A stretch of DNA of 63,589 nucleotides, counting the filler. It is 7 parts of 7 records of this genome, joined end to end, with 100 filler letters (N's around TTAATTAATTAA, not from the genome) between each part and the next. Parts side by side here need not be neighbours in the genome. Positions count along the whole stretch, not along the records: positions 17,722 to 30,170 come from SRR31156797_17456; 6 more parts are not named here. One strand, given 5' to 3'. Shown here piece by piece: positions 17,622 to 58,507 of the stretch. Below the pieces are notes generated by a model that searched no databases, was not told where the DNA came from, and saw nothing but the letters and a program-made list of their open reading frames with translations. The position numbers and the translations under genes are program-made. Numbering within the stretch: position 1 is the first letter of the stretch; every line of letters begins with the position of its first letter.

Positions 17622-17721
17622 NNNNNNNNNNNNNNNNNNNNNNNNNNNNNNNNNNNNNNNNNNNNTTAATTAATTAANNNNNNNNNNNNNNNNNNNNNNN
17701 NNNNNNNNNNNNNNNNNNNNN
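17622..17721. other. Artificial contig linker
   Basis: 44 N + TTAATTAATTAA (stops in all six frames) + 44 N. Confidence 0.99.
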
Positions 17722-17859
17722 ACCATCCGCCGTAGGCGGCGCGTTCCTTTGATACTATCCAGAAGACTATTGAAATAATGCAGTTATTAAAAATTACTGA
17801 ATCAAAGTTGCAGCAATTGCAGGATTTTTACAGATCCACTATTTTGATTTAAACTTAAA

Positions 17860-19146
17860 TCAATAAAACAACAAATAAGCTACACCCGTCAGCATCAAAC
17901 AGGTAACTCCCATTACAACTCCACCCAGCGTATAACTTCTCAGAACTTCGGAAGTCTCCAGTTCAGCCAGGTCCTTGTAGATCCAGAAGAATGGATCGTT
18001 GAAATGTGATATGAGGAACGTCCCGGAAGCCATTGAAAAGAGAACTATTACCGGCGGGAGTCCAAGGACAGGAATAAGAGGTATCACTATTGAAGGTGCC
18101 ACAAGCATGGTGACAACACGAGAACCCTGTACACTCTGTATGGCAACGGCAATGAGGAAAGGAACGAGGATTGCAGGCAAGGGTAGTTCTGAAAGAAGAA
18201 TTCCTATCTCTTCTCCGACTCCTGTCATTGCAAGGGTGGCTCCAAGTGCTCCTCCTCCGCACATGTCGAGGATAACTACTCCACTTCTTCTGACAGCTTT
18301 TTCCAGCCATTCCCTGACACGAACAATGTCATATTGCCTGTAAGCGAAAAGGATTGCCAGCACCACGCCGATCAGGAGTGCTATATTAGGTTCACCCAGG
18401 ATGTCGAACAATCGAAAGTTCGTGAATACATCTGTGAAGATGAGTGCAACGGGTATGACGATCGGTGAGTAAGCAGCTAGCCTGCTAATTTGCATTCTTT
18501 TATTTTCGATCTCATCTCCATTGTCACCGACAAGGCTGTTCATATCACCTATGCTGCAGAATTTGGTTGCATAGAGATAACCCACAACTGAAACTAAAAA
18601 CGCAATAACAATTCCCGGTATCAGTATCTCATTGCTCTCCAGTCCCAACTCGTTCACTGCTGAATAGACAACAGGGGAAGGATACACAAGATTATATGAT
18701 GCCAGTGTTCCGAAAACAAGTACTGATGCTGTGAGAACCTTTGGAAGACCCTGTCTTATCCTGATTTCCTTTGCCACCGGCATGAATATCACATAGGCAA
18801 GGATGCAACACATAAGAGGTACAGAGAAGATGAATCCAAGGAAGTTCAGTCCGAAAAGTGGTTTTCTTGATAGTTTTATGATATCAGATGCAATTAGTCT
18901 TGCAGCACCTGTCCTGTGCAGAACAATTCCTATTGTGCTTCCTGCAGCTATTATAATTGCGAAATGGGAAAATACCTTTCCCATTCCAGTGGTTATCGTG
19001 ATTATGGTGCTCGATGCTTCACCTGCAAGTACTCCGGTGATGACCGATGTCAGGATGAGTCCTAAAAAGGGATGAATTCTCAGCTTTGCGGTGAGTATGA
19101 GGATAAGAACTAAAGAAAAAAGGAAAATGATTATAGAGTGCATCAA
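17860..19146 (-). CDS. GntP-family permease
   Basis: Highly hydrophobic. KLRIHPFLGL, AIQSVQGS.VV, SHFNDPFFW motifs of gluconate/H+ symporter-like proteins. Confidence 0.85.
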   Translation of the reverse strand: MMHSIIIFLFSLVLILILTAKLRIHPFLGLILTSVITGVLAGEASSTIITITTGMGKVFSHFAIIIAAGSTIGIVLHRTGAARLIASDIIKLSRKPLFGLNFLGFIFSVPLMCCILAYVIFMPVAKEIRIRQGLPKVLTASVLVFGTLASYNLVYPSPVVYSAVNELGLESNEILIPGIVIAFLVSVVGYLYATKFCSIGDMNSLVGDNGDEIENKRMQISRLAAYSPIVIPVALIFTDVFTNFRLFDILGEPNIALLIGVVLAILFAYRQYDIVRVREWLEKAVRRSGVVILDMCGGGALGATLAMTGVGEEIGILLSELPLPAILVPFLIAVAIQSVQGSRVVTMLVAPSIVIPLIPVLGLPPVIVLFSMASGTFLISHFNDPFFWIYKDLAELETSEVLRSYTLGGVVMGVTCLMLTGVAYLLFY

Positions 19147-19211
19147 TAGAAAATCGGTTTAGGGCGGTATATAGTTTACCATACTGCCCCACCGTGTCTA
19201 TGTCAGGAGCT

Positions 19212-19817
19212 TCATTCTTCAACGTACAAAAGATAAAGACAGCTGTTCTCTCTCATTTCCATGAATCCCTGGGTTTCGGATATTCCTGCTTTTTCCAGCA
19301 ATACTTTCTTCCAGGACTCGGGAGGTAGTGCTATCTTTCCGGTATATGCCTTTGCTGCTATCTGAGCATATTGAAGTGGTTTGCCGTCAATCTTTATCCT
19401 CTTTGCAACTTCCTTGCGGTAGGTCTGGTGCATCATACATGCACTGTGGGCAGCGGAAGGCTGGATTGTGTGGTTGTAGTGATCAGTTGCTTCCATGTGT
19501 ACAGGATTGAAATTACCGATACGTTTGATGTATTCCCTGATTGCCTTGGAGAAAGGACACACGCTGGTTACAAATCCGAACTTGCTGATCTGTCCGATAT
19601 TCTCAAATGATGAAAGTACTGATTCCCCATTAGTAACGGCATTGGCAAAATCCTCCCATGTCTTGTATTCTTCTTCTGGTACGGATTTTGCAAGTGATTC
19701 TGCCTGTCCTACCATATAATTCGTAAAACCTTCTACACCTTGTTTGTCAGAAATATCCTCAAAGAAGAGGAATACTGATACGTCAACAAAGGGATTTGAA
19801 CTTATGTTTTCAGCCAT
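19212..19817 (-). CDS. Hypothetical protein, paralog of 19830-20456, Cys/His motif (V4R/MetOD1-like, tentative)
   Basis: VCPF...ACMMHQTYR...QIAAKAYTG...SCLY. Archaeal-type RBS GGGTGA. Confidence 0.75.
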   Translation of the reverse strand: MAENISSNPFVDVSVFLFFEDISDKQGVEGFTNYMVGQAESLAKSVPEEEYKTWEDFANAVTNGESVLSSFENIGQISKFGFVTSVCPFSKAIREYIKRIGNFNPVHMEATDHYNHTIQPSAAHSACMMHQTYRKEVAKRIKIDGKPLQYAQIAAKAYTGKIALPPESWKKVLLEKAGISETQGFMEMRENSCLYLLYVEE

Positions 19818-19829
19818 TTTTGGTCACCC

Positions 19830-20456
19830 TCAATCGATTATCTCTTCGCCTGCACTCTTACCTTTAACAATGAGGGCAAAGACGCAGGATGCATTACGTA
19901 GTATGCTTTTAATGTGTCTCTCATCAACATTTATTCTGGCAAGGTTATCAGGTACCATTTTTACCTCACCGGTCATTCCTTTGTTGGCAAGCTGCAGGCA
20001 TTCAAGTGCTTGTTTTGCAACAGTAATGTTGTTTGCTGCAACTTCCCTGAACTTCTGGTGTGTGATACAATAATTTGAAACAGCTGAATCTCTTATACGG
20101 TTATTGTAGCTGTCAGCAACATCAGTGTCTGAGTCCGGAATTGGTCCTATCCTGGAAATATATCTTCCCATGGAAGGAGCCATTGGGCATACTCTCAGAG
20201 CATATACGTATCCAATGACATCTCCGTCTTTATCAGTGATAGCAAGATCTGTCTGGACATTAACATCACCCTCGACTGTAAGTGATGTTCTTCCGTCTTT
20301 CATTGCCACATTAAAAGCTGGCCATCCTACGTATGCTTCTTTTCCCATCCTTTCGGCATAGCTCTCACCTACACGAAGCCAGTATTCTACGACACCTTCA
20401 GTCCCTGCCTTGCTGACCATGTCATCAACAAGTGAGTATATTGCAATGTCCATCAT
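19830..20456 (-). CDS. Hypothetical protein, paralog of 19212-19817, Cys/His motif (V4R/MetOD1-like, tentative)
   Basis: VCPM...YCITHQKFR...QLANKGMTG...SCVF. RBS AAGGAG. Confidence 0.75.
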   Translation of the reverse strand: MMDIAIYSLVDDMVSKAGTEGVVEYWLRVGESYAERMGKEAYVGWPAFNVAMKDGRTSLTVEGDVNVQTDLAITDKDGDVIGYVYALRVCPMAPSMGRYISRIGPIPDSDTDVADSYNNRIRDSAVSNYCITHQKFREVAANNITVAKQALECLQLANKGMTGEVKMVPDNLARINVDERHIKSILRNASCVFALIVKGKSAGEEIID

Positions 20457-20565
20457 AATTATAGGTCTCCTTTATCCTCTCGGGGTTGATTAGTATTTAT
20501 ACAATATTTATATATTAATTGTCTTAATGGTTTTTATTCTTTGCCATTGAATTTATTAAAAATTA

Positions 20566-21099
20566 TTAAATTATACTTATTTTAATCCATTTAAGTTCGG
20601 GATTATCAGGATACAATTGTTCGGTTGTTGAGTTGTCTTCATCTATTATTTCTGCAGCCTCATCTTCCGAATCAACCTTCATCTCGAAGGGATTCTCGCC
20701 TGCAACCTCATACCTGAGAAAAAGTCTTCCACCTTCTGCCATGAGAAGTTTAACGTAATCCTTTTCAAAGAACTGGCTACCAAGCTCATGATTTTTCTGG
20801 CTTTCAGCAGCCCAGGAAGTAACTACAGTTTCAGATGCAAAGGAAGCATCAATACCTTCATTTCCCAGCAAGATTTGTTGCTCGTTCTGCAGGTTCGTAT
20901 TTATATTCCCGTTTATTTCATAAGAGTAAGATGGCTCTCCTTGCATAATATTTTCTGAAAGCAGTAAGGTGCTTTCTGCAGCCTCATTATCGTCAGCTTC
21001 TGCTTTAACCAGAGAGTGCAGCATCCTTGTGAACGTAGTTTCTTTATCCCGTTCTTCAAGGCTTGATCGTTCAAGGTGCTGTGTCCAGATATTCTTCAT
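20566..21099 (-). CDS. Acidic hypothetical protein
   Basis: Long co-directional ORF within the operon. ATG 21099 (track TTG 21108). No recognised family. Confidence 0.6.
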   Translation of the reverse strand: MKNIWTQHLERSSLEERDKETTFTRMLHSLVKAEADDNEAAESTLLLSENIMQGEPSYSYEINGNINTNLQNEQQILLGNEGIDASFASETVVTSWAAESQKNHELGSQFFEKDYVKLLMAEGGRLFLRYEVAGENPFEMKVDSEDEAAEIIDEDNSTTEQLYPDNPELKWIKISII

Positions 21100-21138
21100 A
21101 AAGTTCAACCGTCTAAGTTTATTTTCCTATTAGCAAAG

Positions 21139-21789
21139 TCATCCAAGCATATTTCTGATGGAGTCTTGCAGTTTTTCAAGTGAAGGTGAGTCAAGCAAAA
21201 GGAACATGTCTCCGTAGATTGTTCCGGCCCCGACATCTTTTTCCGATGAGTAAACCATAAACATCGTTTCAATATTCAGTATTTTACTGGGTTCAGTCTC
21301 CATTCTGGATATTCCTTTGTCAAGTATATCCTTAATGTAGCCTATACTGATGTCAGGTACAGAGTGAAGTATTTGCAGACCCAGGAAAGATGATAGTGAA
21401 TGAAGATATGATCCTGCGATAATGTTCCCTGTTTCAAGGAGTGCTGATTCATGGAGGCTGGGGTCATCATCATGCTCAAATCCCTGCAACAGCATATTGC
21501 TCAGGTATACAGCATTTCCAAACTCAAACATTAGCATTGCAAGACCATTAATATCACCGCGGAGCGGAATCATAATGCCTGTCATTGTTATTGATTCAGG
21601 TATCATATCAATGATGGCAGAAGGTTCAAATAAGCGGGCATCAGAAAGATTTAACTGGACCCTCTTTTCAATGAGTTTAGACAGGGAAGTGGTTGCATTT
21701 CCCATTCCAATGCTTCCGATCTCTTTGAAAGCATCAATTAAAAAATTGTCCAGTTCCTGTTCCATTACTTTCTCTCCTGTATCACTCAA
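21139..21789 (-). CDS. cheC: CheC-family CheY-P phosphatase (paralog 4 in transcription order)
   Basis: DAFKEIGSIGMGNATTSLS and SALLETGNIIAGSY segments. Confidence 0.9.
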   Translation of the reverse strand: MSDTGEKVMEQELDNFLIDAFKEIGSIGMGNATTSLSKLIEKRVQLNLSDARLFEPSAIIDMIPESITMTGIMIPLRGDINGLAMLMFEFGNAVYLSNMLLQGFEHDDDPSLHESALLETGNIIAGSYLHSLSSFLGLQILHSVPDISIGYIKDILDKGISRMETEPSKILNIETMFMVYSSEKDVGAGTIYGDMFLLLDSPSLEKLQDSIRNMLG

Positions 21790-22789
21790 GTATTACTTCT
21801 TCCGGATCCTGTTCCATATAGAACTTCTCTCCGACGTAGAAACGAATGTATTCTTCTTTTCCACCTTTCATTAAGCGAATCTTTGTGCCTTCTTCTTCTG
21901 CAATGTTCAGGAATAGTCCTTCGAATCTTGATACAACCTGTTCATCATGCGCAGTGTTGTTGATCATTCCCACAAGCAGAAGTTCATTTGCAGCAAATCT
22001 TTCAGCCATTTCAGATATGAACTGGTAGGTTTTTTGCTCTCCTTCTGTAACAAGTAGCTGGCTGATTGGTTCAAAAACAACTGCACAACCCTCGGGAAGC
22101 TTACTCGTAAGTTCAAAGAATTTATCAAGTTCATCAATGGGTAATTTAATTATTCCTTCTTCATTGCTAACCTGCTCGCTTGTAGATGATATTTCGATGA
22201 ATTTCATTGCACCGATATCCATGAGATCACCTATTTTTTCCTTGTACATTGCAGTACGTGGCTGGGTTGAAACAAGTACAGTGTTAACCATTTCCCCGTA
22301 CAGGCGCAGGCAGATCTCTATAACAGAATCCTCGTATCTTGTTTTTGGTGTGTACTCTATCAGGGTAGATCTGCTAAGAAGGGTTGATATTTGCTCAACT
22401 TCTGAAATATTATCATTTTCCACCTCTGAGCTTGTAAATACCATTCCTTCAATAAGAAAATCACCAAGTTTTTCCCTTGGAATTGTCTTGAATGCCTGAT
22501 ACATCATGACTCCGGCTGCAGCAAAAACACTGATGTAGACTGCGCCCCAGAAACCCATGAATAGTAATATGGTTTCAGTTATGTCGGCATCCTGTGAACT
22601 TATCGCAATAGATGGGAAAATTGCCGTTGTAATAAGGAAGATTGCTGTAAGTGCAAGAAGTAACCAGGCTATAGAGCCTTTTTTTGTTTCAAAATATACT
22701 TTTACCCAGAAGTATATAGCTGCTAATCCACATGCCATCGATATGGATACAAAAATGATGTGTATTATTGTTATGTCCGGAGTTAACAT
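21782..22789 (-). CDS. Membrane protein: about 3 N-terminal TM helices plus inactivated KaiC/RecA-like (DUF835-like) domain
   Basis: Hydrophobic N-terminal ~100 aa. C-terminal TLIEY..., VLVST, AVVFEPISQLL, MINNTAHD..V.RFEGLF pattern with no GxxGxGKT. Confidence 0.6.
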   Translation of the reverse strand: MLTPDITIIHIIFVSISMACGLAAIYFWVKVYFETKKGSIAWLLLALTAIFLITTAIFPSIAISSQDADITETILLFMGFWGAVYISVFAAAGVMMYQAFKTIPREKLGDFLIEGMVFTSSEVENDNISEVEQISTLLSRSTLIEYTPKTRYEDSVIEICLRLYGEMVNTVLVSTQPRTAMYKEKIGDLMDIGAMKFIEISSTSEQVSNEEGIIKLPIDELDKFFELTSKLPEGCAVVFEPISQLLVTEGEQKTYQFISEMAERFAANELLLVGMINNTAHDEQVVSRFEGLFLNIAEEEGTKIRLMKGGKEEYIRFYVGEKFYMEQDPEEVILE

Positions 22790-22843
22790 CCTTCTGCCAC
22801 CTGCAATTGTCCTTAGTATATTATATTACTCTGTATTTATATA

Positions 22844-23317
22844 TTAGTATGTTTTAATTCCTTTGCGTGCACTCTTGACAGTAAGTTCTCCGTTTTCTGT
22901 GTCAAGTATTATAGTACGTCCGTAATTCTGTCCTGTATCTTCTGCAATTATGGGAATTTTAAGTTCTTTCAATGACTTTTTTGTGGCAGCTATATTTCGT
23001 TCGCCAACGTTAAGTTTTGTGTCGGTATTAAATGAGAACATACTTGCACCACCTGCGATCTTTGCAGTAATCCTTAATTTGTGTGCACCTTCATCTACCA
23101 TGGTATCGCGAAGGTCCGGTATTCCTGTGTCTGCAAATTTAGCAAGATTGTCTTTTGATCGCGCCTGTTCAATACTCGGGAGCATAATATGTACCATCCC
23201 GCCAACGCCTGTGCTTTTATCATATAGCGAGATACCTACGCATGAACCCAGTCCAAGGGTTGTGAGCTTCTCAGGCTTCTTCGCCGTCGCACTATCAGCC
23301 ATTCCCACGATTATCAT
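22844..23317 (-). CDS. cheD: Chemoreceptor glutamine deamidase CheD
   Basis: LTTLGLGSCVG, GGMVHIMLP, KFADTG, AKIAGGA.MF, VGERN, AEDTG..YGRT. Confidence 0.97.
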   Translation of the reverse strand: MIIVGMADSATAKKPEKLTTLGLGSCVGISLYDKSTGVGGMVHIMLPSIEQARSKDNLAKFADTGIPDLRDTMVDEGAHKLRITAKIAGGASMFSFNTDTKLNVGERNIAATKKSLKELKIPIIAEDTGQNYGRTIILDTENGELTVKSARKGIKTY

Positions 23318-23319
23318 GT

Positions 23320-23934
23320 TTATCTCGTACGCATTTCTTCAATCCTTCCAAGTATGGTCTGTAATGATGCCGAGTCAAGCATCATATACATATCACCGCT
23401 TAGACTATGATATGCATCTTCTCCCATAACCTCAAAGAGCGTTGTTAGGCCAAACACATGCTCCATTTTTCCGTTAATGTGTTGCTTTGCCTTTGCAAAT
23501 ATTTCATCGTTAGTACCTTCTGATATCTTAGGTAACGCTGGTACTATCGAGAGATTCAGGAATTTTGCAAGAGCATTATAATAGCTTCCTGCAAGGATAT
23601 TTGAAACTTCAACAAAGGCTGATCTTTTCAAATATTCGTCATCTTCAGAGTTACTTCCTTCAAGCAGCATTTCAGAGAGCACTTCAGTATGTTGCTTTCT
23701 GACAATGAGAATAAATCCTCCATTCATATCTCCCATCACTCTGACAATGGAACCAACCCTGTCAGTCTGAATGTCCTTGCTAATGTCATTCGCGTCAAGT
23801 AATGTAAGGGCTGAACTGCTTACATTCACCGTCTTGTTAACAAGTTGTGAAAGGGCAGTTGTTGCATTTCCCATTCCTATGTTTCCCACTTCATTCAGTG
23901 CATCATAATAGAATTTATCCAGTACAATATTCAT
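23320..23934 (-). CDS. cheC: CheC-family phosphatase (paralog 3)
   Basis: DALNEVGNIGMG and SAFVEVSNILAG, both ExxN sites intact. Confidence 0.92.
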   Translation of the reverse strand: MNIVLDKFYYDALNEVGNIGMGNATTALSQLVNKTVNVSSSALTLLDANDISKDIQTDRVGSIVRVMGDMNGGFILIVRKQHTEVLSEMLLEGSNSEDDEYLKRSAFVEVSNILAGSYYNALAKFLNLSIVPALPKISEGTNDEIFAKAKQHINGKMEHVFGLTTLFEVMGEDAYHSLSGDMYMMLDSASLQTILGRIEEMRTR

Positions 23935-23948
23935 CCTTCTCCCTCCTT

Positions 23949-24563
23949 TTAGATCATCATATCAATTTTCTCGAGTATACTGTCCATAGAATCAGGATCG
24001 AATAATGTCAGGAATATTCCATCCATTTCATGTCCTCCGATTGTGAACAAAGTGTCAAAAAGCAGTGCGTTTTCAGCTTTCTGACTCATCTCAATGAGTA
24101 TATGATCAATAATAGCTCCTAGCATGTCAAATGTCTGCATTGGCGGTGATAATTTCATATTGAGTCCGAGGAAATCAGAAAGTGAACTGACATATGAACC
24201 TGCAAGTATATTGCCAAGCTCTTCTAGAAGGGACTGGTTAAGTGGGTCCAGAATATCAACATCTTCCTGTCCTGTAATAGTTGTGCAAACAGTCTTGGCA
24301 GATTCTTCGGAAAGCATCATCATTATGTATCCGTCTATATCTCCTGCTACCTGCATAATGACAGCTGACACAATTGTATCAGCTCCTCCTGCAATTTCAG
24401 GTACCTTTTCTATCAGTTCGACTTTAAGTCCTGGAACCTCTATTTTGACCTCCTTTGAGATCATTTTTGAAAGGGAAGTGACAGCATTGCCAATGCCTAT
24501 GTTAACAACTTCTCTTAACGCACTGATCTGTATTTCACTTAGATCTTCAATATTGTACTTCAT
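23949..24563 (-). CDS. cheC: CheC-family phosphatase (paralog 2)
   Basis: SALREVVNIGIG and SLLEELGNILAG, both ExxN sites intact. Confidence 0.95.
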   Translation of the reverse strand: MKYNIEDLSEIQISALREVVNIGIGNAVTSLSKMISKEVKIEVPGLKVELIEKVPEIAGGADTIVSAVIMQVAGDIDGYIMMMLSEESAKTVCTTITGQEDVDILDPLNQSLLEELGNILAGSYVSSLSDFLGLNMKLSPPMQTFDMLGAIIDHILIEMSQKAENALLFDTLFTIGGHEMDGIFLTLFDPDSMDSILEKIDMMI

Positions 24564-24618
24564 GTGTTAACTCCTTGATTGCATATTGATACTGGCACTT
24601 CTGAGAAAGTACCAGATG

Positions 24619-25440
24619 TTATTTCTGGTATATTCTCTCCTTGGAATTATATGCTTTAAAAGTATTTTTGGAAGGACCAAGTAATGTTTCGGTTTTACCC
24701 ATTATAAAGAAACCATCTTTGGAAAGGGCATCATAGAAATTTACATAGAGTTTTTCCTGCAGTTCTTTCTGGAAGTATATTGTGACGTTTCTACAGAAAA
24801 TCGCATCAAATCCACTCATTTTAGGTCCTGTTATTAAGTCCTGTTTCTTGAACTGGGTTACTTTTTTCAGTTCGTCATTGATGAAATAATTGTCACCCTG
24901 TTTTGTAAAATACTTGCTCAAAAAAGCAGGTCTCACATCCTTCATTTCAATACTGGAGTAAACGCCTTTTTGTGCTTTTAAAAGACTCTCTTTGTCAATA
25001 TCTGTACCTGTTATTTTGATATTGTATTTATTGAAGTCTTTACCCAAAAGGTGGTTCAATAACATTGCAATTGAGTATGCTTCAACACCAATGGAGCATC
25101 CTGCACTCCAGATGCGTATAGACCTAAGTCCGGTGTTTTTTGCTTTGATTATGGCAGGAAGTATCTCTTTTTCCACAATGTCATAGACTTCAGGATTCCT
25201 GAAGAAATTGGTGACATTCACAGTCAGTGTTTCCATAAGCTCCGGCCATTCATCCCGTTTGCTCTGAAGGCAATTAACATATTCCTGATACGTTTTTGAA
25301 TCAGTTGCACGTAATCTTACATCGAGTCTTCTTTTAAAGTGTGCGTCCTTATATTGCTCACAATTAAATCCAAGTTTCTGATGTATCATTTTTTTAAGTG
25401 TCTCATAACCTTCATCTTTTTTTTGTATCGTCTCAAGCAT
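24619..25440 (-). CDS. cheR: Chemotaxis methyltransferase CheR
   Basis: LTVNVTNFFRN, IWSAGCS.G.EAYS, GTDID, FDAIFCRNV.IYF, G.TETL. Confidence 0.97.
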   Translation of the reverse strand: MLETIQKKDEGYETLKKMIHQKLGFNCEQYKDAHFKRRLDVRLRATDSKTYQEYVNCLQSKRDEWPELMETLTVNVTNFFRNPEVYDIVEKEILPAIIKAKNTGLRSIRIWSAGCSIGVEAYSIAMLLNHLLGKDFNKYNIKITGTDIDKESLLKAQKGVYSSIEMKDVRPAFLSKYFTKQGDNYFINDELKKVTQFKKQDLITGPKMSGFDAIFCRNVTIYFQKELQEKLYVNFYDALSKDGFFIMGKTETLLGPSKNTFKAYNSKERIYQK

Positions 25441-25443
25441 TTT

Positions 25444-27564
25444 TTATCCCTCTACAAATTCGATAGTTACATTATTTCCATCTCTCAGTGGGGTTGTGAA
25501 TCTGGCAGGAACGTTGTTTACAAGAAGTCTCATGCTCTTGCCAACAAGTTCCTCCTTTTTAATACTCATAAATTCAAAAAGATCAGAAAGAATAGGATCA
25601 GCTTCATCTCCATTCTTATAATTAACAGTATCTCCATCGTTTATTTTAGCAGAAAGGTCAGTCTTTTTCCCGTTTAGGGTGATGTGGGGCATTGTGCCGT
25701 CAAATAGTACTTCTTTACCGTTGAGGATTATAGTTATTTTTTTACCATCTTCCGGTTTTCCAAGGATATCTTTGAGTCTGTACTCAAATTCGCTTTCCTC
25801 AATGTCAATTGAATCGCCTTCTTCTATAAAATGAGTAGAAAGTATTGAAGTGTCTGCAACTCTGTCATTAAGCTTAACGACATATTTTGTGCTGTCAAAA
25901 TATTGTATACGATTATTGACTTTAATGCTTATTTTCTCTGCCTTTTCAGGGCTTGTTTCTCTTTTCCAGATGTCTTGCAGGCTGACATTTCTGATTTCTA
26001 CCTGTGCCCTGTCAGGAACCCTGTCATCCAGAGATGCATCCTTGCCATTTATTTTGATAAAAGGACTTTGTTCTGTGTCCTTGCCATTAACAGTTATTTT
26101 CAGTTTCGTCCGGATGTCCAATTTTCCGGCCAGATCCCTGACCTTTGCACTTGCATCTTTTCCGTCAACAGGCGCTGTGAAATTAATAACTGCACCTTTA
26201 TGAACAGGATCTCCAATGTTTCCTTTTTTCCCGTCAATAGTTATTTTTGCATGTTCTCCCATCTGCCCTTCGATGGTCATGAACTGCGAATTAACATGGA
26301 TGCTTAGTGCCATACCAGGACGTGGATAGAGGCGCTTTATTTTGGAAGCAACAAGTGCATCCATAATCGAGAGTCCGTTCACATCCATAAGATGTATCTC
26401 TGAATCGTTCACTGTAACATCTATAAATTCAATACCTTCTTTTAGAACTCCCATTCTGGCAATTCCAAGAGGTGTTATCATATCTGCTCCGTTAATCATG
26501 CCGGTGCTATCTGAAAAACCTTCGACTTGCTTAGGAAGACGTGATCCTATCCTTTGTTTTGGCAGGTCAAGGTGTTTGGAAATATGTTCTTTAAGTCCGA
26601 ATGTCTGTGATCCACCACCCACAAGAACAACGGCTCTTGGAACTTTTCCGTTGAGGTTCCGTATCTCTTCTACGATATGAAGCGCCAGCTTATCGATCTC
26701 ATCTTCAATATCACTTATAACCTGGCTTACAGGAATCTCAGTGACCATTCCAAAGATATCTTCCATTTCGATTGTCTCTTTGCTGGTCAGTGATTGTTTG
26801 ATCATTTCTCCCTTTTTAAAATCCACTAGATAATGATCACAAATAAAATCCGTAATTTCGTCTCCTGCCTCTGGTACCATTCCATAGCCAATAACTGTCC
26901 CATCATCGGTGATCGCTATGTCTGATGTACCTGCCCCGATATCCACAAGTGTGATGTTAAGCTTGCGCATATCGGCAGGTATTGCAACGTTTAGTGCTGC
27001 AATAGGTTCCAGCGTTACACTGGATGCTTCAAGTCCGCATCTGTCCAGGACAGCAAACATGCTGTTGATGACAGCATCAGGAAGGAATGTTGCAAGTACT
27101 TCTACTGAGATGGAGTTTCCTTTCTGGCCTATAATATTTGCTATTCTCTGGCAATCAAGTTCGTAACTTATAATTGAATATCCTACGCAATTGAATCCTT
27201 CGTTTATTCCAAGTTCATTACCTGCCCTTGCAACAGCTTCGAATTCAAGTTCAGAAATATCTCGTTTAGTTATTTGTCTGTAAGGAATTTCCAGTGAAAG
27301 CTTTGCTTTTGATGTTTTCAGTGCTCTTCCTGCAACAGCAACTGAAACCTGTGATAATTTGTGCCCAATTTGATCTTCCAGTTCTTTTTTGACTGTATCG
27401 ACAACGCTGGCTACTTTTTCAATATCATGTATCTGCCCGTCCTGCATGCTCCTTTCGCCATGCTCACGTATACATGCGGCCTTGATGTTGAGTTGCTCAT
27501 TTTCTGTAATGAGCCCAACAACAGTTCTAGTTCCTATATCCAGCGCAAAGTGGGCATTATTCAT
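25444..27564 (-). CDS. FtsA-like actin-superfamily ATPase with C-terminal beta-grasp (ThiS/MoaD-like) repeats
   Basis: Phosphate-1 ALDIGTRTV, connect-1 TLEPIAA, phosphate-2 LVDIGAGTSD, adenosine VVLVGGGSQ. About 320-aa tail of (V/I/L)NG/N...L..GD.V.I repeats. Confidence 0.85.
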   Translation of the reverse strand: MNNAHFALDIGTRTVVGLITENEQLNIKAACIREHGERSMQDGQIHDIEKVASVVDTVKKELEDQIGHKLSQVSVAVAGRALKTSKAKLSLEIPYRQITKRDISELEFEAVARAGNELGINEGFNCVGYSIISYELDCQRIANIIGQKGNSISVEVLATFLPDAVINSMFAVLDRCGLEASSVTLEPIAALNVAIPADMRKLNITLVDIGAGTSDIAITDDGTVIGYGMVPEAGDEITDFICDHYLVDFKKGEMIKQSLTSKETIEMEDIFGMVTEIPVSQVISDIEDEIDKLALHIVEEIRNLNGKVPRAVVLVGGGSQTFGLKEHISKHLDLPKQRIGSRLPKQVEGFSDSTGMINGADMITPLGIARMGVLKEGIEFIDVTVNDSEIHLMDVNGLSIMDALVASKIKRLYPRPGMALSIHVNSQFMTIEGQMGEHAKITIDGKKGNIGDPVHKGAVINFTAPVDGKDASAKVRDLAGKLDIRTKLKITVNGKDTEQSPFIKINGKDASLDDRVPDRAQVEIRNVSLQDIWKRETSPEKAEKISIKVNNRIQYFDSTKYVVKLNDRVADTSILSTHFIEEGDSIDIEESEFEYRLKDILGKPEDGKKITIILNGKEVLFDGTMPHITLNGKKTDLSAKINDGDTVNYKNGDEADPILSDLFEFMSIKKEELVGKSMRLLVNNVPARFTTPLRDGNNVTIEFVEG

Positions 27565-27565
27565 C

Positions 27566-28183
27566 TTATCCCATCATCTTTTTCATAACAGCTGCCATAA
27601 TTATGTCTGTAGCCCCGGGTTCAAAAAGCATGTTGAATTCATTCTTTGAGTTTGTGGAAGGTATCAGGCATTCTCCTTTCACTACTATGAATTCATCAGC
27701 CAGACTTCCTATTTCATTTCTGATGAAATCACCCACTCCTTCCATGTTTACCTCAATGCTTGGGTCTCCTATAGTCAGGTTAATTCCAAGGAATTCATTG
27801 ACAACACGCATGTAAGAGCTGCAGAGATTAAGTCCCATCTCCCTGAGTTTTCTGACCTGTGGTTCTTCTATTTTAGTTGTTGAACCAATTGACTTTTTCA
27901 TTAATAGATCGGAAAAAGAAAATGCAGAGTATTTTGGAAGCAGTATAAGTGTTCCACCAGTGACATCGCCTGACATATGCAAGTGTATTCCAACCACACT
28001 TTTGTTTTTTCCTTCTACATCACTCTTTGCAATTATTTCGTCCAGAGTAAGCATTTCCACAGTAGGTATGTCTATTTTCACATCCCTGCTAACCATTTTT
28101 GAAAGTGAAGTTGCCAGATGGCCCATTCCAATATTTGCTGCTTCTTGAAATGCTCCCTTTGCCATTTCATCTATTTCTGCCAT
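27566..28183 (-). CDS. cheC: CheC-family protein (paralog 1)
   Basis: GAFQEAANIGMGHLATSLS. Second site degenerate (REMGLNL). Confidence 0.85.
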   Translation of the reverse strand: MAEIDEMAKGAFQEAANIGMGHLATSLSKMVSRDVKIDIPTVEMLTLDEIIAKSDVEGKNKSVVGIHLHMSGDVTGGTLILLPKYSAFSFSDLLMKKSIGSTTKIEEPQVRKLREMGLNLCSSYMRVVNEFLGINLTIGDPSIEVNMEGVGDFIRNEIGSLADEFIVVKGECLIPSTNSKNEFNMLFEPGATDIIMAAVMKKMMG

Positions 28184-28200
28184 GTTATTCCCTCGTGTAT

Positions 28201-30170
28201 TTAGATCAATGTAGCAATATCCAGGATTAGTGCGACACTTCCATCTCCCAGAATAGTTGCACCTGCAAATCCTTTTGAATTCTTTAAAATTTTATTGTCT
28301 AAAGTTTTGATAATCACTTCTTGTTGTCCAAGAAGGTCGTCAACTACCAGACCGATATTTGTTCCCATTTTTTCGACAACAACAACAATCAGGTTCTCTT
28401 TTTCTTCTATCTCTGCAGGACAGTCAAGTACGTCATGCAATCTCAAAAGTGGAAGAACTTCGCCTCTTAGCATGATTACTTCTTTGCCTTCTATGGTCTT
28501 GATGTCACTGGCTTTAATTCCTACATCACGGATGACATTGCCAAGTGGAACTGCATATGTTTCATCTGCAACGGTAACCATCAGAGATTGGATGATGGCT
28601 ACAGTAAGTGGTAGCTGAAGCTTCATGATGCTGCCCTGGCCTGGTACTGAAGTGATCTTTACACTCCCTCCGAGGGCCTCTATCTTTGTTTTGACAGCAT
28701 CCATACCTACACCTCTTCCGGAGATGTCAGTGACTACCTTTGCTCCGCTAAAGCCTGACATGAAAATAAGGTTCAGTGCATCTGCATCAGAAAGTTTGTC
28801 AACTTCTTCCCTGGTCAGAATTCCCTTTTTGACAGCTACGTCCCTGAGGTGTGCAGGATCCATTCCTTTACCGTCGTCTTCTACTTCAATAAGGACACTG
28901 TTCCTCTGACGTGATGCAGCCAGCCTAAGCATACCTGCAATCGGTTTTCCGAGATCCTTGCGCTCCTGTTCAGGCTCAATTCCGTGGTCAACTGCATTAC
29001 GTAGCAGGTGAACAAGCGGGTCGCCTATTTCGTCAAGAACTGTCCTGTCAAGTTCGATCTCCTTTCCTTCAATAATGAGGTTGACCTGCTTACCTTCTGA
29101 TTTTGCCAGATCTCTTATCATTCTGGGGAATCTGCTGAATATCTGGTCGATAGGGACCATTCTTGATTCCATAACTTCTGTCTGTATCTCATTTGTGAGA
29201 CGGTCCAGATTTGCCAGTGATTCGTCAAGATCTTTAGCATTCAGATCTGAAGCAAGCTGGTTCAGCCTGATTTTATTAATGATGAGTTCTCCAACAAGGT
29301 TCATCAAATTGTCAAGCCTTTCAATATTGACCCTGACACTTTGTATGCTTTTAACAGTGTCTGATCTTTTAACTCCGGAAGCGCAATTCGTCTGGGTTTC
29401 ACTTTCTGCTGCCTTAGTCTCTTGCATCTCTTCTTTACTTTCTTCAGTAGGTGTTGATTGTGAGATAGTTGTAGGTATAACTTCTTTTATTTCTGAAATT
29501 TTCTTTAATGTGTCTACTATCTCTTCATCATCTGTTTTTGTAGCGAAAATAACAGTGAAATCTAAATCAAATTTCTCATCCTCAAGTTCAGCTTCACCGG
29601 GTTCACATCGGATGATTTCTCCCATCTTGGTTACATTTATAAGTACAAGTGTTGAACGAGCTGATTTAAGTACACAGGAATCATCAAGTATCACTTTTAT
29701 TGATACTGTTCTGTTTCCTTCACTTGCAGCATTTTCAATTAACTGTTTTTCAGACTCAGTAAGTTCAATACAGGTATCAACAGGAATACTCTCTTCTTCT
29801 TCTTCACATGAAGCTTCAATGTCTGTGTTGAGTTCGCTTTCAATTGTGTTTATACTTTCTTCAACAGAAGTTTTTACTTCTTCCATAGGAAGTGTTCCTT
29901 CCATGGCTTTTGAAAGTGTAGCCTGAAGAGGGCTTATATCAAGTTCTTCTCCATTGTCCACGGTTTCTACAAGTGCTTCAAGTGTATCAAGACACTCAAA
30001 AAGAATATCTATGAGTCCATTACTTACTGCCACCTGTGACTTTCTAACCATGTCCATCAGGTTTTCCATCTCATGTGTTAGTTCAGCAATAGTACTGAAT
30101 CCCATTGTTGCTGACATCCCTTTCAATGTATGGGCTGAACGGAACATAGTGTTGATATATTCCAGTTCAT
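28201..30170 (-). CDS. cheA: Chemotaxis histidine kinase CheA, 5'-truncated by contig end
   Basis: HPt FRSAHTLKG, RLDNLMNLVGEL, HLLRNAVDHGIE, EDDGKG, DISGRGVGMD, CheW-like P5. Frame stays open to 30170 (ELEYINT-MFRS). Confidence 0.98.
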
Positions 30171-30270
30171 NNNNNNNNNNNNNNNNNNNNNNNNNNNNNN
30201 NNNNNNNNNNNNNNTTAATTAATTAANNNNNNNNNNNNNNNNNNNNNNNNNNNNNNNNNNNNNNNNNNNN
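30171..30270. other. Artificial contig linker
   Basis: Same N44-TTAATTAATTAA-N44 spacer. Confidence 0.99.
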
Positions 30271-35601: not shown

Positions 35602-35701
35602 NNNNNNNNNNNNNNNNNNNNNNNNNNNNNNNNNNNNNNNNNNNNTTAATTAATTAANNNNNNNNNNNNNNNNNNNNNNNNNNNNNNNNNNNNNNNNNNN
35701 N
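35602..35701. other. Artificial contig linker
   Basis: Same spacer. Confidence 0.99.
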
Positions 35702-42749: not shown

Positions 42750-42849
42750 NNNNNNNNNNNNNNNNNNNNNNNNNNNNNNNNNNNNNNNNNNNNTTAATTA
42801 ATTAANNNNNNNNNNNNNNNNNNNNNNNNNNNNNNNNNNNNNNNNNNNN
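42750..42849. other. Artificial contig linker
   Basis: Same spacer. Confidence 0.99.
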
Positions 42850-49978: not shown

Positions 49979-50078
49979 NNNNNNNNNNNNNNNNNNNNNN
50001 NNNNNNNNNNNNNNNNNNNNNNTTAATTAATTAANNNNNNNNNNNNNNNNNNNNNNNNNNNNNNNNNNNNNNNNNNNN
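49979..50078. other. Artificial contig linker
   Basis: Same spacer. Confidence 0.99.
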
Positions 50079-58407: not shown

Positions 58408-58507
58408 NNNNNNNNNNNNNNNNNNNNNNNNNNNNNNNNNNNNNNNNNNNNTTAATTAATTAANNNNNNNNNNNNNNNNNNNNNNNNNNNNNNNNNNNNN
58501 NNNNNNN
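58408..58507. other. Artificial contig linker
   Basis: Same spacer. Confidence 0.99.

Follow-up and report, generated by a model that had tools for sequence, protein, structure and literature searches.

What is a gene for an FtsA-like protein doing between cheC and cheR in the chemotaxis operon of an archaeon? The question is raised by a 63.6-kb stretch of DNA (the window, at its full length), one of whose seven contigs carries on the minus strand an open reading frame (ORF) for a 706-amino-acid protein with an actin-fold domain and a long beta-grasp tail. The protein belongs to a distinct, large, and uncharacterized family whose fixed architecture joins an FtsA-like domain to five ubiquitin-like (Ubl) repeats, and one clade of this family is resident in the che operons of bacteria and Methanolobus. 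New here are the precise insertion of this one gene into an archaeal operon of vertical descent, the decayed copies left in some genomes, and the counts of its co-occurrence with CheA. The FtsA-like protein probably acts in the control of chemotaxis or motility.

RESULTS

Gene order and spacing in the archaeal che operon

The minus strand of the contig reads cheA, cheC-like, FtsA-like, cheR, cheC, cheC, cheD, a 335-amino-acid ORF, cheC-like, three small ORFs, and a GntP permease gene. The plus-strand frame over 25444-27564 is full of stops. The features concerned are as follows.

28201..30147, minus strand, cheA, 5'-truncated at the contig end (Pfam Hpt, P2, H-kinase_dim, HATPase_c, and CheW; the Hpt match begins at profile position 29)
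27566..28183, minus strand, cheC-like gene (205 amino acids) directly upstream of the FtsA-like gene (Pfam CheC, 28.7 bits; NF041093 CheC, 83.7 bits, below cut-off)
25444..27564, minus strand, FtsA-like gene (706 amino acids; predicted actin-fold ATPase domain followed by five beta-grasp repeats, with the stop codon in 25444-25446)
24619..25440, minus strand, cheR, directly downstream (Pfam CheR, 183 bits; CheR_N, 48.6 bits)
23949-24563, minus strand, cheC (Pfam)
23320-23934, minus strand, cheC (Pfam)
22844-23317, minus strand, cheD (Pfam)
21782-22789, minus strand, 335-amino-acid ORF (DUF7504 match, below cut-off only)
21139-21789, minus strand, cheC-like gene (Pfam)

The tight spacing noted in an initial annotation of this DNA agrees with the ORF coordinates: 1 nucleotide separates the end of the cheC-like gene (27566) from the FtsA-like start (27564), and 3 nucleotides separate the end of the FtsA-like stop codon (25444) from the cheR start (25440). 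The remark that no ftsZ or dcw genes are nearby also holds, both for ORFs of at least 150 amino acids on the 12.4-kb contig (Pfam) and for 22 kb of a relative with a complete genome (L001). Among these contig ORFs, Pfam names only che genes and the GntP permease; three are unmatched, and one has a match below cut-off.

Judged by likeness, the contig is archaeal, as first supposed. The top matches of the FtsA-like protein are Methanolobus proteins (up to 80% identity), the CheA is up to 87% identical to that of a genome of the Methanolobus group, and no other contig of the window is Methanolobus-like. Nor is the contig a chimera, because an independent assembly of one public run, which may be the source sample, yields a 29,461-bp contig that spans all 12.4 kb with 0 differences and continues for ~17 kb, and because contigs of another study, ~94-95% alike, bridge the junction between cheC and the FtsA-like gene. 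From the ~17-kb extension, cheB, cheY, and the remainder of the operon can probably be recovered.

An FtsA/PilM-type domain joined to five beta-grasp repeats

Models and profiles divide the protein into the parts listed below, all encoded on the minus strand. Motif conservation was scored over 66 aligned relatives.

26440..27564, minus strand, residues 1-375, actin-fold domain of FtsA/PilM type (Foldseek; profile versus PDB)
27526..27543, minus strand, phosphate-1 motif L8-D-I-G-T-R13 (L8, D9, G11, T12, and R13 invariant in 66 sequences)
26914..26949, minus strand, phosphate-2 motif L206-VDIGAGTSDIA-217 (D208, G210, A211, G212, T213, and D215 invariant in 66 sequences)
26602..26631, minus strand, adenosine motif V312-VLVGGGSQT-321 (G316 and G317 invariant in 66 sequences; at least 90% have G318)
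26155..26439, minus strand, residues 376-470, beta-grasp repeat 1, with an extra N-terminal hairpin (SAMP1 4hro, Z 7.6, tail residues 5-91)
25984..26154, minus strand, residues 471-527, beta-grasp repeat 2 (hhalign versus other repeats, 96.8-98.8%)
25783..25983, minus strand, residues 528-594, beta-grasp repeat 3 (hhalign, 97.3-99.1%)
25606..25782, minus strand, residues 595-653, beta-grasp repeat 4 (hhalign, 96.7-99.1%)
25447..25605, minus strand, residues 654-706, beta-grasp repeat 5 (Pfam ThiS at 659-701; hhalign, 96.7-97.3%)

Both models and sequence profiles identify the N-terminal half as an FtsA/PilM-type actin-fold domain with intact nucleotide motifs, a predicted ATPase; Pfam, motif conservation, and Foldseek all uphold this part of the initial annotation. 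The AlphaFold2 model of the whole protein has a predicted local distance difference test (pLDDT) score of 88. In Foldseek, its N-terminal 375 residues superpose on whole FtsA chains (template modeling [TM] scores, 0.78-0.85), with Vibrio FtsA 7q6f_A matched at E 4.3e-30 (TMt 0.85, root mean square deviation 2.8, 393 columns) and Thermotoga maritima FtsA 4a2a at TMt 0.82. PilM follows with TM scores of 0.65-0.79 (2ych, TMt 0.79), and EutJ and MreB rank after it. FtsA is likewise the best sequence match among solved structures (FtsA in PDB: 7q6f, 7q6d, 4a2a, 1e4f), the profile matching FtsA 7q6g at E 1.6e-21 over residues 5-378. The nucleotide motifs align with those of solved FtsA as LEIGT/LDIGT (phosphate 1), VVDIGGGT/VVDIGAGT (phosphate 2), and VLTGGGAQ (adenosine).

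In Pfam, this half passes the cut-offs of PilM_2 (PF11104; 35.6 bits against 27), FtsA (PF14450; 35.3 against 31.8), and MreB_Mbl (27.7 against 27). It nevertheless remains below those of the FtsA models TIGR01174 (ftsA equivalog; 117.3 bits against 175.85) and NF007009 (62 against 409) and of the PilM model TIGR01175 (45.6 against 133). Differences from FtsA extend to the C terminus and to the gene context. FtsA ends in an amphipathic membrane-targeting helix, where the window protein has its 331-residue, five-repeat tail, and the window gene lies in a che operon of an archaeon rather than in an ftsZ/dcw context; archaeal FtsZ is generally anchored via SepF. PilM, a peptide-clamping scaffold that binds PilN, is alike in fold (2ych, 5eou; TMt 0.72-0.79) but lacks a beta-grasp tail, and no pilus-assembly family, including pilN, pilO, pilP, and pilQ, is matched among the annotated contig ORFs of at least 150 amino acids.

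Models and profiles also resolve the tail (residues 376-706) into ThiS-like beta-grasp repeats. The initial annotation had counted about four of them, without a terminal GG. The fold and the missing GG were confirmed, but the number is five, because five segments are mutually homologous (hhalign probability, 96.7-99.1%). Folded alone, the tail reaches pLDDT 95 and a predicted TM score of 0.70. Structural comparison (VIA) aligned tail residues 113-221 with ThiS 3cwi (Z 8.7) and also retrieved ThiS 2lek (Z 8.3), BubA (7.4), and TGS domains. The best Foldseek matches are linear tetra- and tri-ubiquitin and bacterial multi-ubiquitin (7yui_A, E 1.3e-6; 9cd2_A, E 1.9e-4). The window protein's own tail scores 26.3 bits against Pfam ThiS (PF02597; cut-off 22.5), and the tails of 74 relatives match ThiS (61/74), Ub-Mut7C (43/74), TGS (31/74), S4 (12/74), and FliMN_C (2/74, and none of ten tails checked singly).

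Each repeat thus shares the beta-grasp fold of ThiS/MoaD/SAMP proteins (PF02597). The repeats differ from these in being tandem, with repeats 1-4 internal and no free C-terminal GG for activation; the chain ends ...VTIEFVEG in a beta strand (E698-705), and the models have no C-terminal helix. No match to E1-like ThiF/MoeB/UbaA, ThiG, or MoaE was obtained among the annotated contig ORFs of at least 150 amino acids. Bacterial multi-ubiquitin proteins (9cd2, 9d5a, 9d59; BubA 9eav) and linear polyubiquitin also carry tandem Ubl domains in one chain, but sequence identity is 8-10%, global TM scores are 0.14-0.19, and the domain arrangement differs (Foldseek); moreover, the array of the window protein is fused to an actin-fold ATPase domain and encoded in a che operon.

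One clade of a large family resides in che operons

A profile built from the tail was run against 1.84 billion proteins and matched 536 cluster representatives (50% identity clusters) at E <= 1e-30, with 931 at 1e-10, and 1435 at 0.001; among the 150 matches listed, most of those of ~700 amino acids have the tail at ~385-715. The family is therefore large and its architecture fixed. An ESM Atlas look-up returned only clusters of the FtsA-like family itself.

A genome scan recovered at least 591 relatives among 600 candidate stretches, and a metagenome scan seeded with an Omnitrophota member recovered 532 among 596; the best 80 loci of each were analyzed. ORFs were clustered and then searched with hidden Markov models built from the che genes found. 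Bacillota supply most of the 80 genome loci, and Thermotogota a few; three come from Omnitrophota, two from Methanolobus, and one from an unclassified bacterial metagenome-assembled genome (MAG). These loci and the ESM Atlas clusters bear out the statement of the initial annotation that such proteins occur in Firmicutes and Thermotogae. A full che cluster surrounds the gene in six genome loci: two from Methanolobus (L001, L002), one from the unclassified bacterium (L003), and three from Omnitrophota (L008, L011, L017). Ten metagenome loci are che-embedded (L090, L091, L092, L093, L094, L095, L098, L104, L127, L147), and four have a receiver, methyl-accepting chemotaxis protein (MCP), or cheW gene within a few genes, counts that are lower bounds because many contigs are short.

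The che-embedded members group together. FastTree placed 14 of 15 che-embedded rows, in a tree of 142 members, in one clade (support 99) with no other row inside, the long-branched L147 falling outside. A quick IQ-TREE analysis (LG+G4) of 51 hand-picked rows (15 che rows, 10 from the sister group, and 26 others) united all 15, with a Shimodaira-Hasegawa-like approximate likelihood ratio test (SH-aLRT) support of 96 and 0 of the 36 other rows inside. The clade contains Methanolobus, Omnitrophota, and other uncultured bacteria, with 34-40% identity across it. Operon orders within it vary (X being the FtsA-like gene): cheA-cheC-X-cheR, cheA-cheC-X-comFB-cheR, cheA-X-cheC-cheY, cheA-285aa-X-cheC-cheD, cheA-X-cheD, and cheA-cheC-GH3-X. 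Throughout, X lies closely 3' of cheA, with or without an intervening cheC; a cheC usually adjoins it, and its start often overlaps the preceding stop (cheC end 8007 and gene start 8004 in L098; cheA end 7992 and gene start 7989 in L104).

Outside the full clusters, three further genome loci have cheR alone just upstream on the same strand: L004:5768-6643 (a Clostridia genome), L009:2104-2964 (Heliobacterium mobile), and L045:5043-5825 (a Bacillota MAG). These loci hint at a link to CheR in particular. In L004 and L045, hemB/hemL-like genes adjoin the lone cheR, and no further che gene is in reach.

A single gene was inserted into a vertically inherited operon

The window gene lies exactly between cheC and cheR, as it does in L001, L002, and L081-L084 (Methanolobus) and in L087 (from genome G010), and this is a place that bacterial relatives occupy too. 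In sister genera (L085, L086, L088, L089), the operon reads cheY-cheB-cheA-cheC-cheR-cheC-(cheD)..., cheC being followed directly by cheR, with the FtsA-like gene absent. The gene is therefore an insertion specific to one lineage, made into an archaeal operon that was inherited vertically.

The window CheA is 56-63% identical to its counterparts in sister genera versus 40-41% to those of Omnitrophota, the upstream CheC 66-73% (same position) versus 27-29%, and CheR 57-62% versus 35-36%. The FtsA-like protein has no sister-genus counterpart and is 37-40% identical to bacterial members of the che clade. Because the flanking genes are near those of sister genera and the gene itself is without a counterpart there, a single gene rather than a che block entered the operon. 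For the flanking genes, this much greater similarity to the sister archaeal genera led us to reject transfer of the whole che block from Omnitrophota-like bacteria.

Carriers amount to 31 of the 177 genomes in the family of G001 (Methanolobus); they form one block plus G010, whose copy is 52% identical. In a phylum sample of 401 genomes, all 13 carriers fall within this block. Since the range of the FtsA-like family is overwhelmingly bacterial, an ancestor of Methanolobus most likely acquired the gene from bacteria, a direction that we infer from this range and that the tree does not prove; the four archaeal rows stand in an unresolved fork with bacterial che rows (IQ-TREE).

Carriers nearly always have CheA

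Co-occurrence with che genes, proposed earlier as a check on linkage, was found in three taxonomic families. Overall, 114 of the 177 G001-family genomes have CheA. The counts by family, which lack phylogenetic independence and point to a dependence in one direction alone, are as follows.

G530 family (Bacillota), 269 genomes: CheA in 141/141 carriers and 58/128 noncarriers (45%)
G001 family, 177 genomes: CheA in 31/31 carriers and 83/146 noncarriers (57%)
G533 family (Bacillota), 69 genomes: CheA in 54/60 carriers and 4/9 noncarriers

In three genomes, namely, G001 (Methanolobus), G002 (Omnitrophota), and G003 (the bacterium), the sole match to the CheA dimerization domain is the cheA that adjoins the FtsA-like gene.

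Other genes of the window and of related loci

The window consists of seven contigs joined by six spacers of the form N44-TTAATTAATTAA-N44.

17722..30170, contig bearing the gene (12,449 bp, Methanolobus-like, with a spacer on either side)
17622-17721, spacer
30171-30270, spacer
35602-35701, spacer
42750-42849, spacer
49979-50078, spacer
58408-58507, spacer

The flanking contigs carry SusD, alginate-lyase, and glycoside-hydrolase (GH2, GH106) genes, a content typical of Bacteroidota and irrelevant to the FtsA-like gene. The record therefore mixes an archaeon and a bacterium. A misassembled or bacterial contig as the source of the gene was rejected, given that the Bacteroidota-like genes lie behind spacers, that the independent contig spans the stretch, and that the cheC junction is bridged.

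Four ORFs of 335, 180, 208, and 201 amino acids lie 3' of the che genes (19212-22789, minus strand), with no NCBIfam family and no Pfam match above cut-off. ORFs of matching size and order trail the che operons of the sister-genus loci L085, L086, L088, and L089, and the four may be uncharacterized members of archaeal che operons.

Omnitrophota-type loci have a ComFB-family gene (PF10719) between the FtsA-like gene and cheR; ComFB proteins have been reported as cyclic-dinucleotide receptors. The ComFB genes are as follows.

L008:12123-12437, ComFB
L011:12284-12547, ComFB
L017:7973-8236, ComFB
L090:5519-5782, ComFB
L091:2108-2500, ComFB
L098:10162-10428, ComFB

L003 has a second, shorter family member (L003:349-2079; 576 amino acids) ~8 kb upstream of the che-embedded copy on the same strand. 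At L112:5148-10130 (and also in L100, L126, and L134), a short actin-like gene (343 amino acids in L112), a gene for an FlgG-like rod protein, one for a WecG/TagA glycosyltransferase, and the family member follow one another, an order that resembles the mbl-flhO-flhP region of Bacillus. In Bacillaceae (e.g., L019:12549-13514), the family member is convergent to ytxJ-ytxH-ytxG. The Foldseek matches of the N-terminal domain include PDB 9a51, an integrative model of Mbl and YtxH, which may be a coincidence beside the ytxH synteny.

DISCUSSION

A soluble accessory chemotaxis protein is the best overall explanation of the FtsA-like gene, one to which we give about an even chance. To our knowledge, archaella and bacterial flagella share no parts, yet the gene is found in che operons of both Omnitrophota and Methanolobus; its product should therefore target the Che core common to the two, not the motor. 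More tentatively, and at less than even chances, the protein may serve as a scaffold for soluble Che proteins. In such a scaffold, the actin-fold domain would bind ATP and self-associate or clamp a peptide of a partner, like FtsA and PilM, and a rigid poly-beta-grasp arm would replace the FtsA membrane anchor. Along this arm, soluble Che proteins (CheC-type phosphatases, CheD, CheA, or CheR) would find one docking site after another, and docking would gather and tune the enzymes of signal termination and adaptation.

Alternatively, the actin-fold domain could polymerize with ATP into filaments by which chemoreceptor arrays are placed, held, or connected with the motility apparatus. The initial annotation had offered such an array scaffold or positioner, or else an output linked to CheC/CheY, as candidate roles. 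FtsA, the nearest fold, has been solved as a filament (7q6f, a double filament; TMt 0.85), none of the nucleotide motifs is lost, and both the place in a che operon and the phyletic link to CheA agree with this spatial role equally well. We nonetheless regard it as unlikely, since the chain ends in a beta strand instead of an FtsA-like C-terminal membrane helix and the constant neighbors are cheA, cheC, and cheR, no receptor or cheW gene being consistently adjacent. Chemoreceptor arrays are normally positioned by ParA/MinD-type ATPases (ParC, PpfA). What the window protein may have in common with these is function alone, as an ATPase whose gene lies among che genes and that could organize chemosensory proteins; its actin fold contrasts with their P-loop fold, and no homology emerged in any search made.

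Several observations weigh against a role in chemotaxis. The neighborhood census sustained only part of the expected linkage: 15 che-embedded relatives form one clade, but most loci are not beside che genes. Neither a che cluster nor an adjacent cheR was found in 71 of the 80 genome loci (64 with no che match and 7 with only a distant or weak receiver or MCP-like match), and no che gene was called in 66 of the 80 metagenome loci. Bacillaceae members have a conserved housekeeping neighborhood, ccpA-aroA-[gene]-ytxJ-ytxH-ytxG-murC-ftsK(-like), and those of other clades neighbor mutS2, polA-coaE, solute-binding/transport genes, a rod protein gene plus wecG, or a kinase-helicase pair. Six carriers of the G533 family, whose genomes of 2.8-3.4 Mb may be incomplete, gave no CheA match, and the CheA counts at large share the lack of independence stated above.

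Decay within the Methanolobus range points the same way. G085 retains a remnant of ~310 nucleotides between cheC and cheR (L170:4629-4940) that matches residues 1-26, 556-589, and 693-706, a natural internal deletion in an otherwise intact che operon. G078 has only the two ends (residues 3-104 and 598-705), G088 has 7 TGA codons within the match, and G075 and G094 have cheC beside cheR with no trace of the gene; some of these five cases may be assembly faults. Since the gene is decayed or missing in these genomes and absent from sister genera, it is accessory and dispensable, not core. The initial description of the gene as built into the operon therefore gives way to that of an accessory part.

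These facts would suit a protein of general function unrelated to chemotaxis, for instance in the envelope or cell cycle, as the database names of the family suggest, with the Methanolobus copy a neutral or nearly neutral horizontal insertion. The housekeeping synteny, the many loci away from che genes, and the losses all speak for such a passenger. Against it, all 15 che-embedded proteins form one clade, whose members come from several bacterial lineages and one archaeal genus and are 34-40% identical. Operon orders were rearranged and yet the place next to cheA was kept, for which it is hard to account without selection. CheA is present in every carrier of the G530 and G001 families, as opposed to 45% and 57% of noncarriers, and 28 of the 31 G001-family carriers have an uninterrupted full-length match, across 52-80% sequence divergence. 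The clade could also have kept its che position via descent of a transferred block rather than selection, although the histories of the flanking genes differ. On balance, a passenger seems distinctly improbable, a little more so than an organizer of arrays.

Least probable of all, and hardly to be expected, is a cytoplasmic sensor whose beta-grasp repeats bind a small molecule or RNA and whose ATPase reads the energy state, with output into CheA or CheC: tails match TGS (31/74) and S4 (12/74) profiles and the ligand-binding beta domains of transcobalamin and haptocorrin (Z 7.0-7.1; VIA), and TGS and soluble-ligand-binding families also use the beta-grasp fold, but ThiS, SAMP, and ubiquitin, which share the fold, are matched at least as strongly as the TGS- and transcobalamin-type domains, Z values below 8 may reflect common arrangement only, and no ligand-binding residues were identified.

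We know of no actin-fold protein among the accessory chemotaxis proteins CheC, CheD, CheV, CheX, and CheZ. Pfam and NCBIfam assign the FtsA-like protein to actin-fold and beta-grasp families only, without homology to CheC/CheX/FliY, CheD, CheV, or CheZ. Full-text literature searches found no paper that describes the FtsA plus five-Ubl architecture or reports che operons with an FtsA-like gene; two beta-grasp surveys mention FtsA 0 times in their main texts (PMC1949818, PMC1779556), and their supplements could list the architecture.

Chemotaxis is among the best-studied signaling pathways, yet in several bacterial lineages as well as an archaeal genus, a predicted FtsA-like ATPase has held its place beside cheA. 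The archaeal copy illustrates cleanly how one gene of bacterial origin can be inserted into an archaeal operon of vertical descent. Natural controls exist in the sister genera and in the decayed copies, whose operons are otherwise identical, so the effect of the gene is directly testable. It is conceivable, if doubtful, that the whole family of ~710-amino-acid proteins is a widespread and unrecognized accessory of CheC/CheD-type chemotaxis in Bacillota, Thermotogota, Omnitrophota, and Methanolobus, an actin-family ATPase that would assemble on or beside the signaling machinery while its Ubl arm gathers Che enzymes. If so, prokaryotic chemotaxis would have its first cytoskeletal element of actin fold, which passed from bacteria into the che operon of an archaeon and remained functional there.

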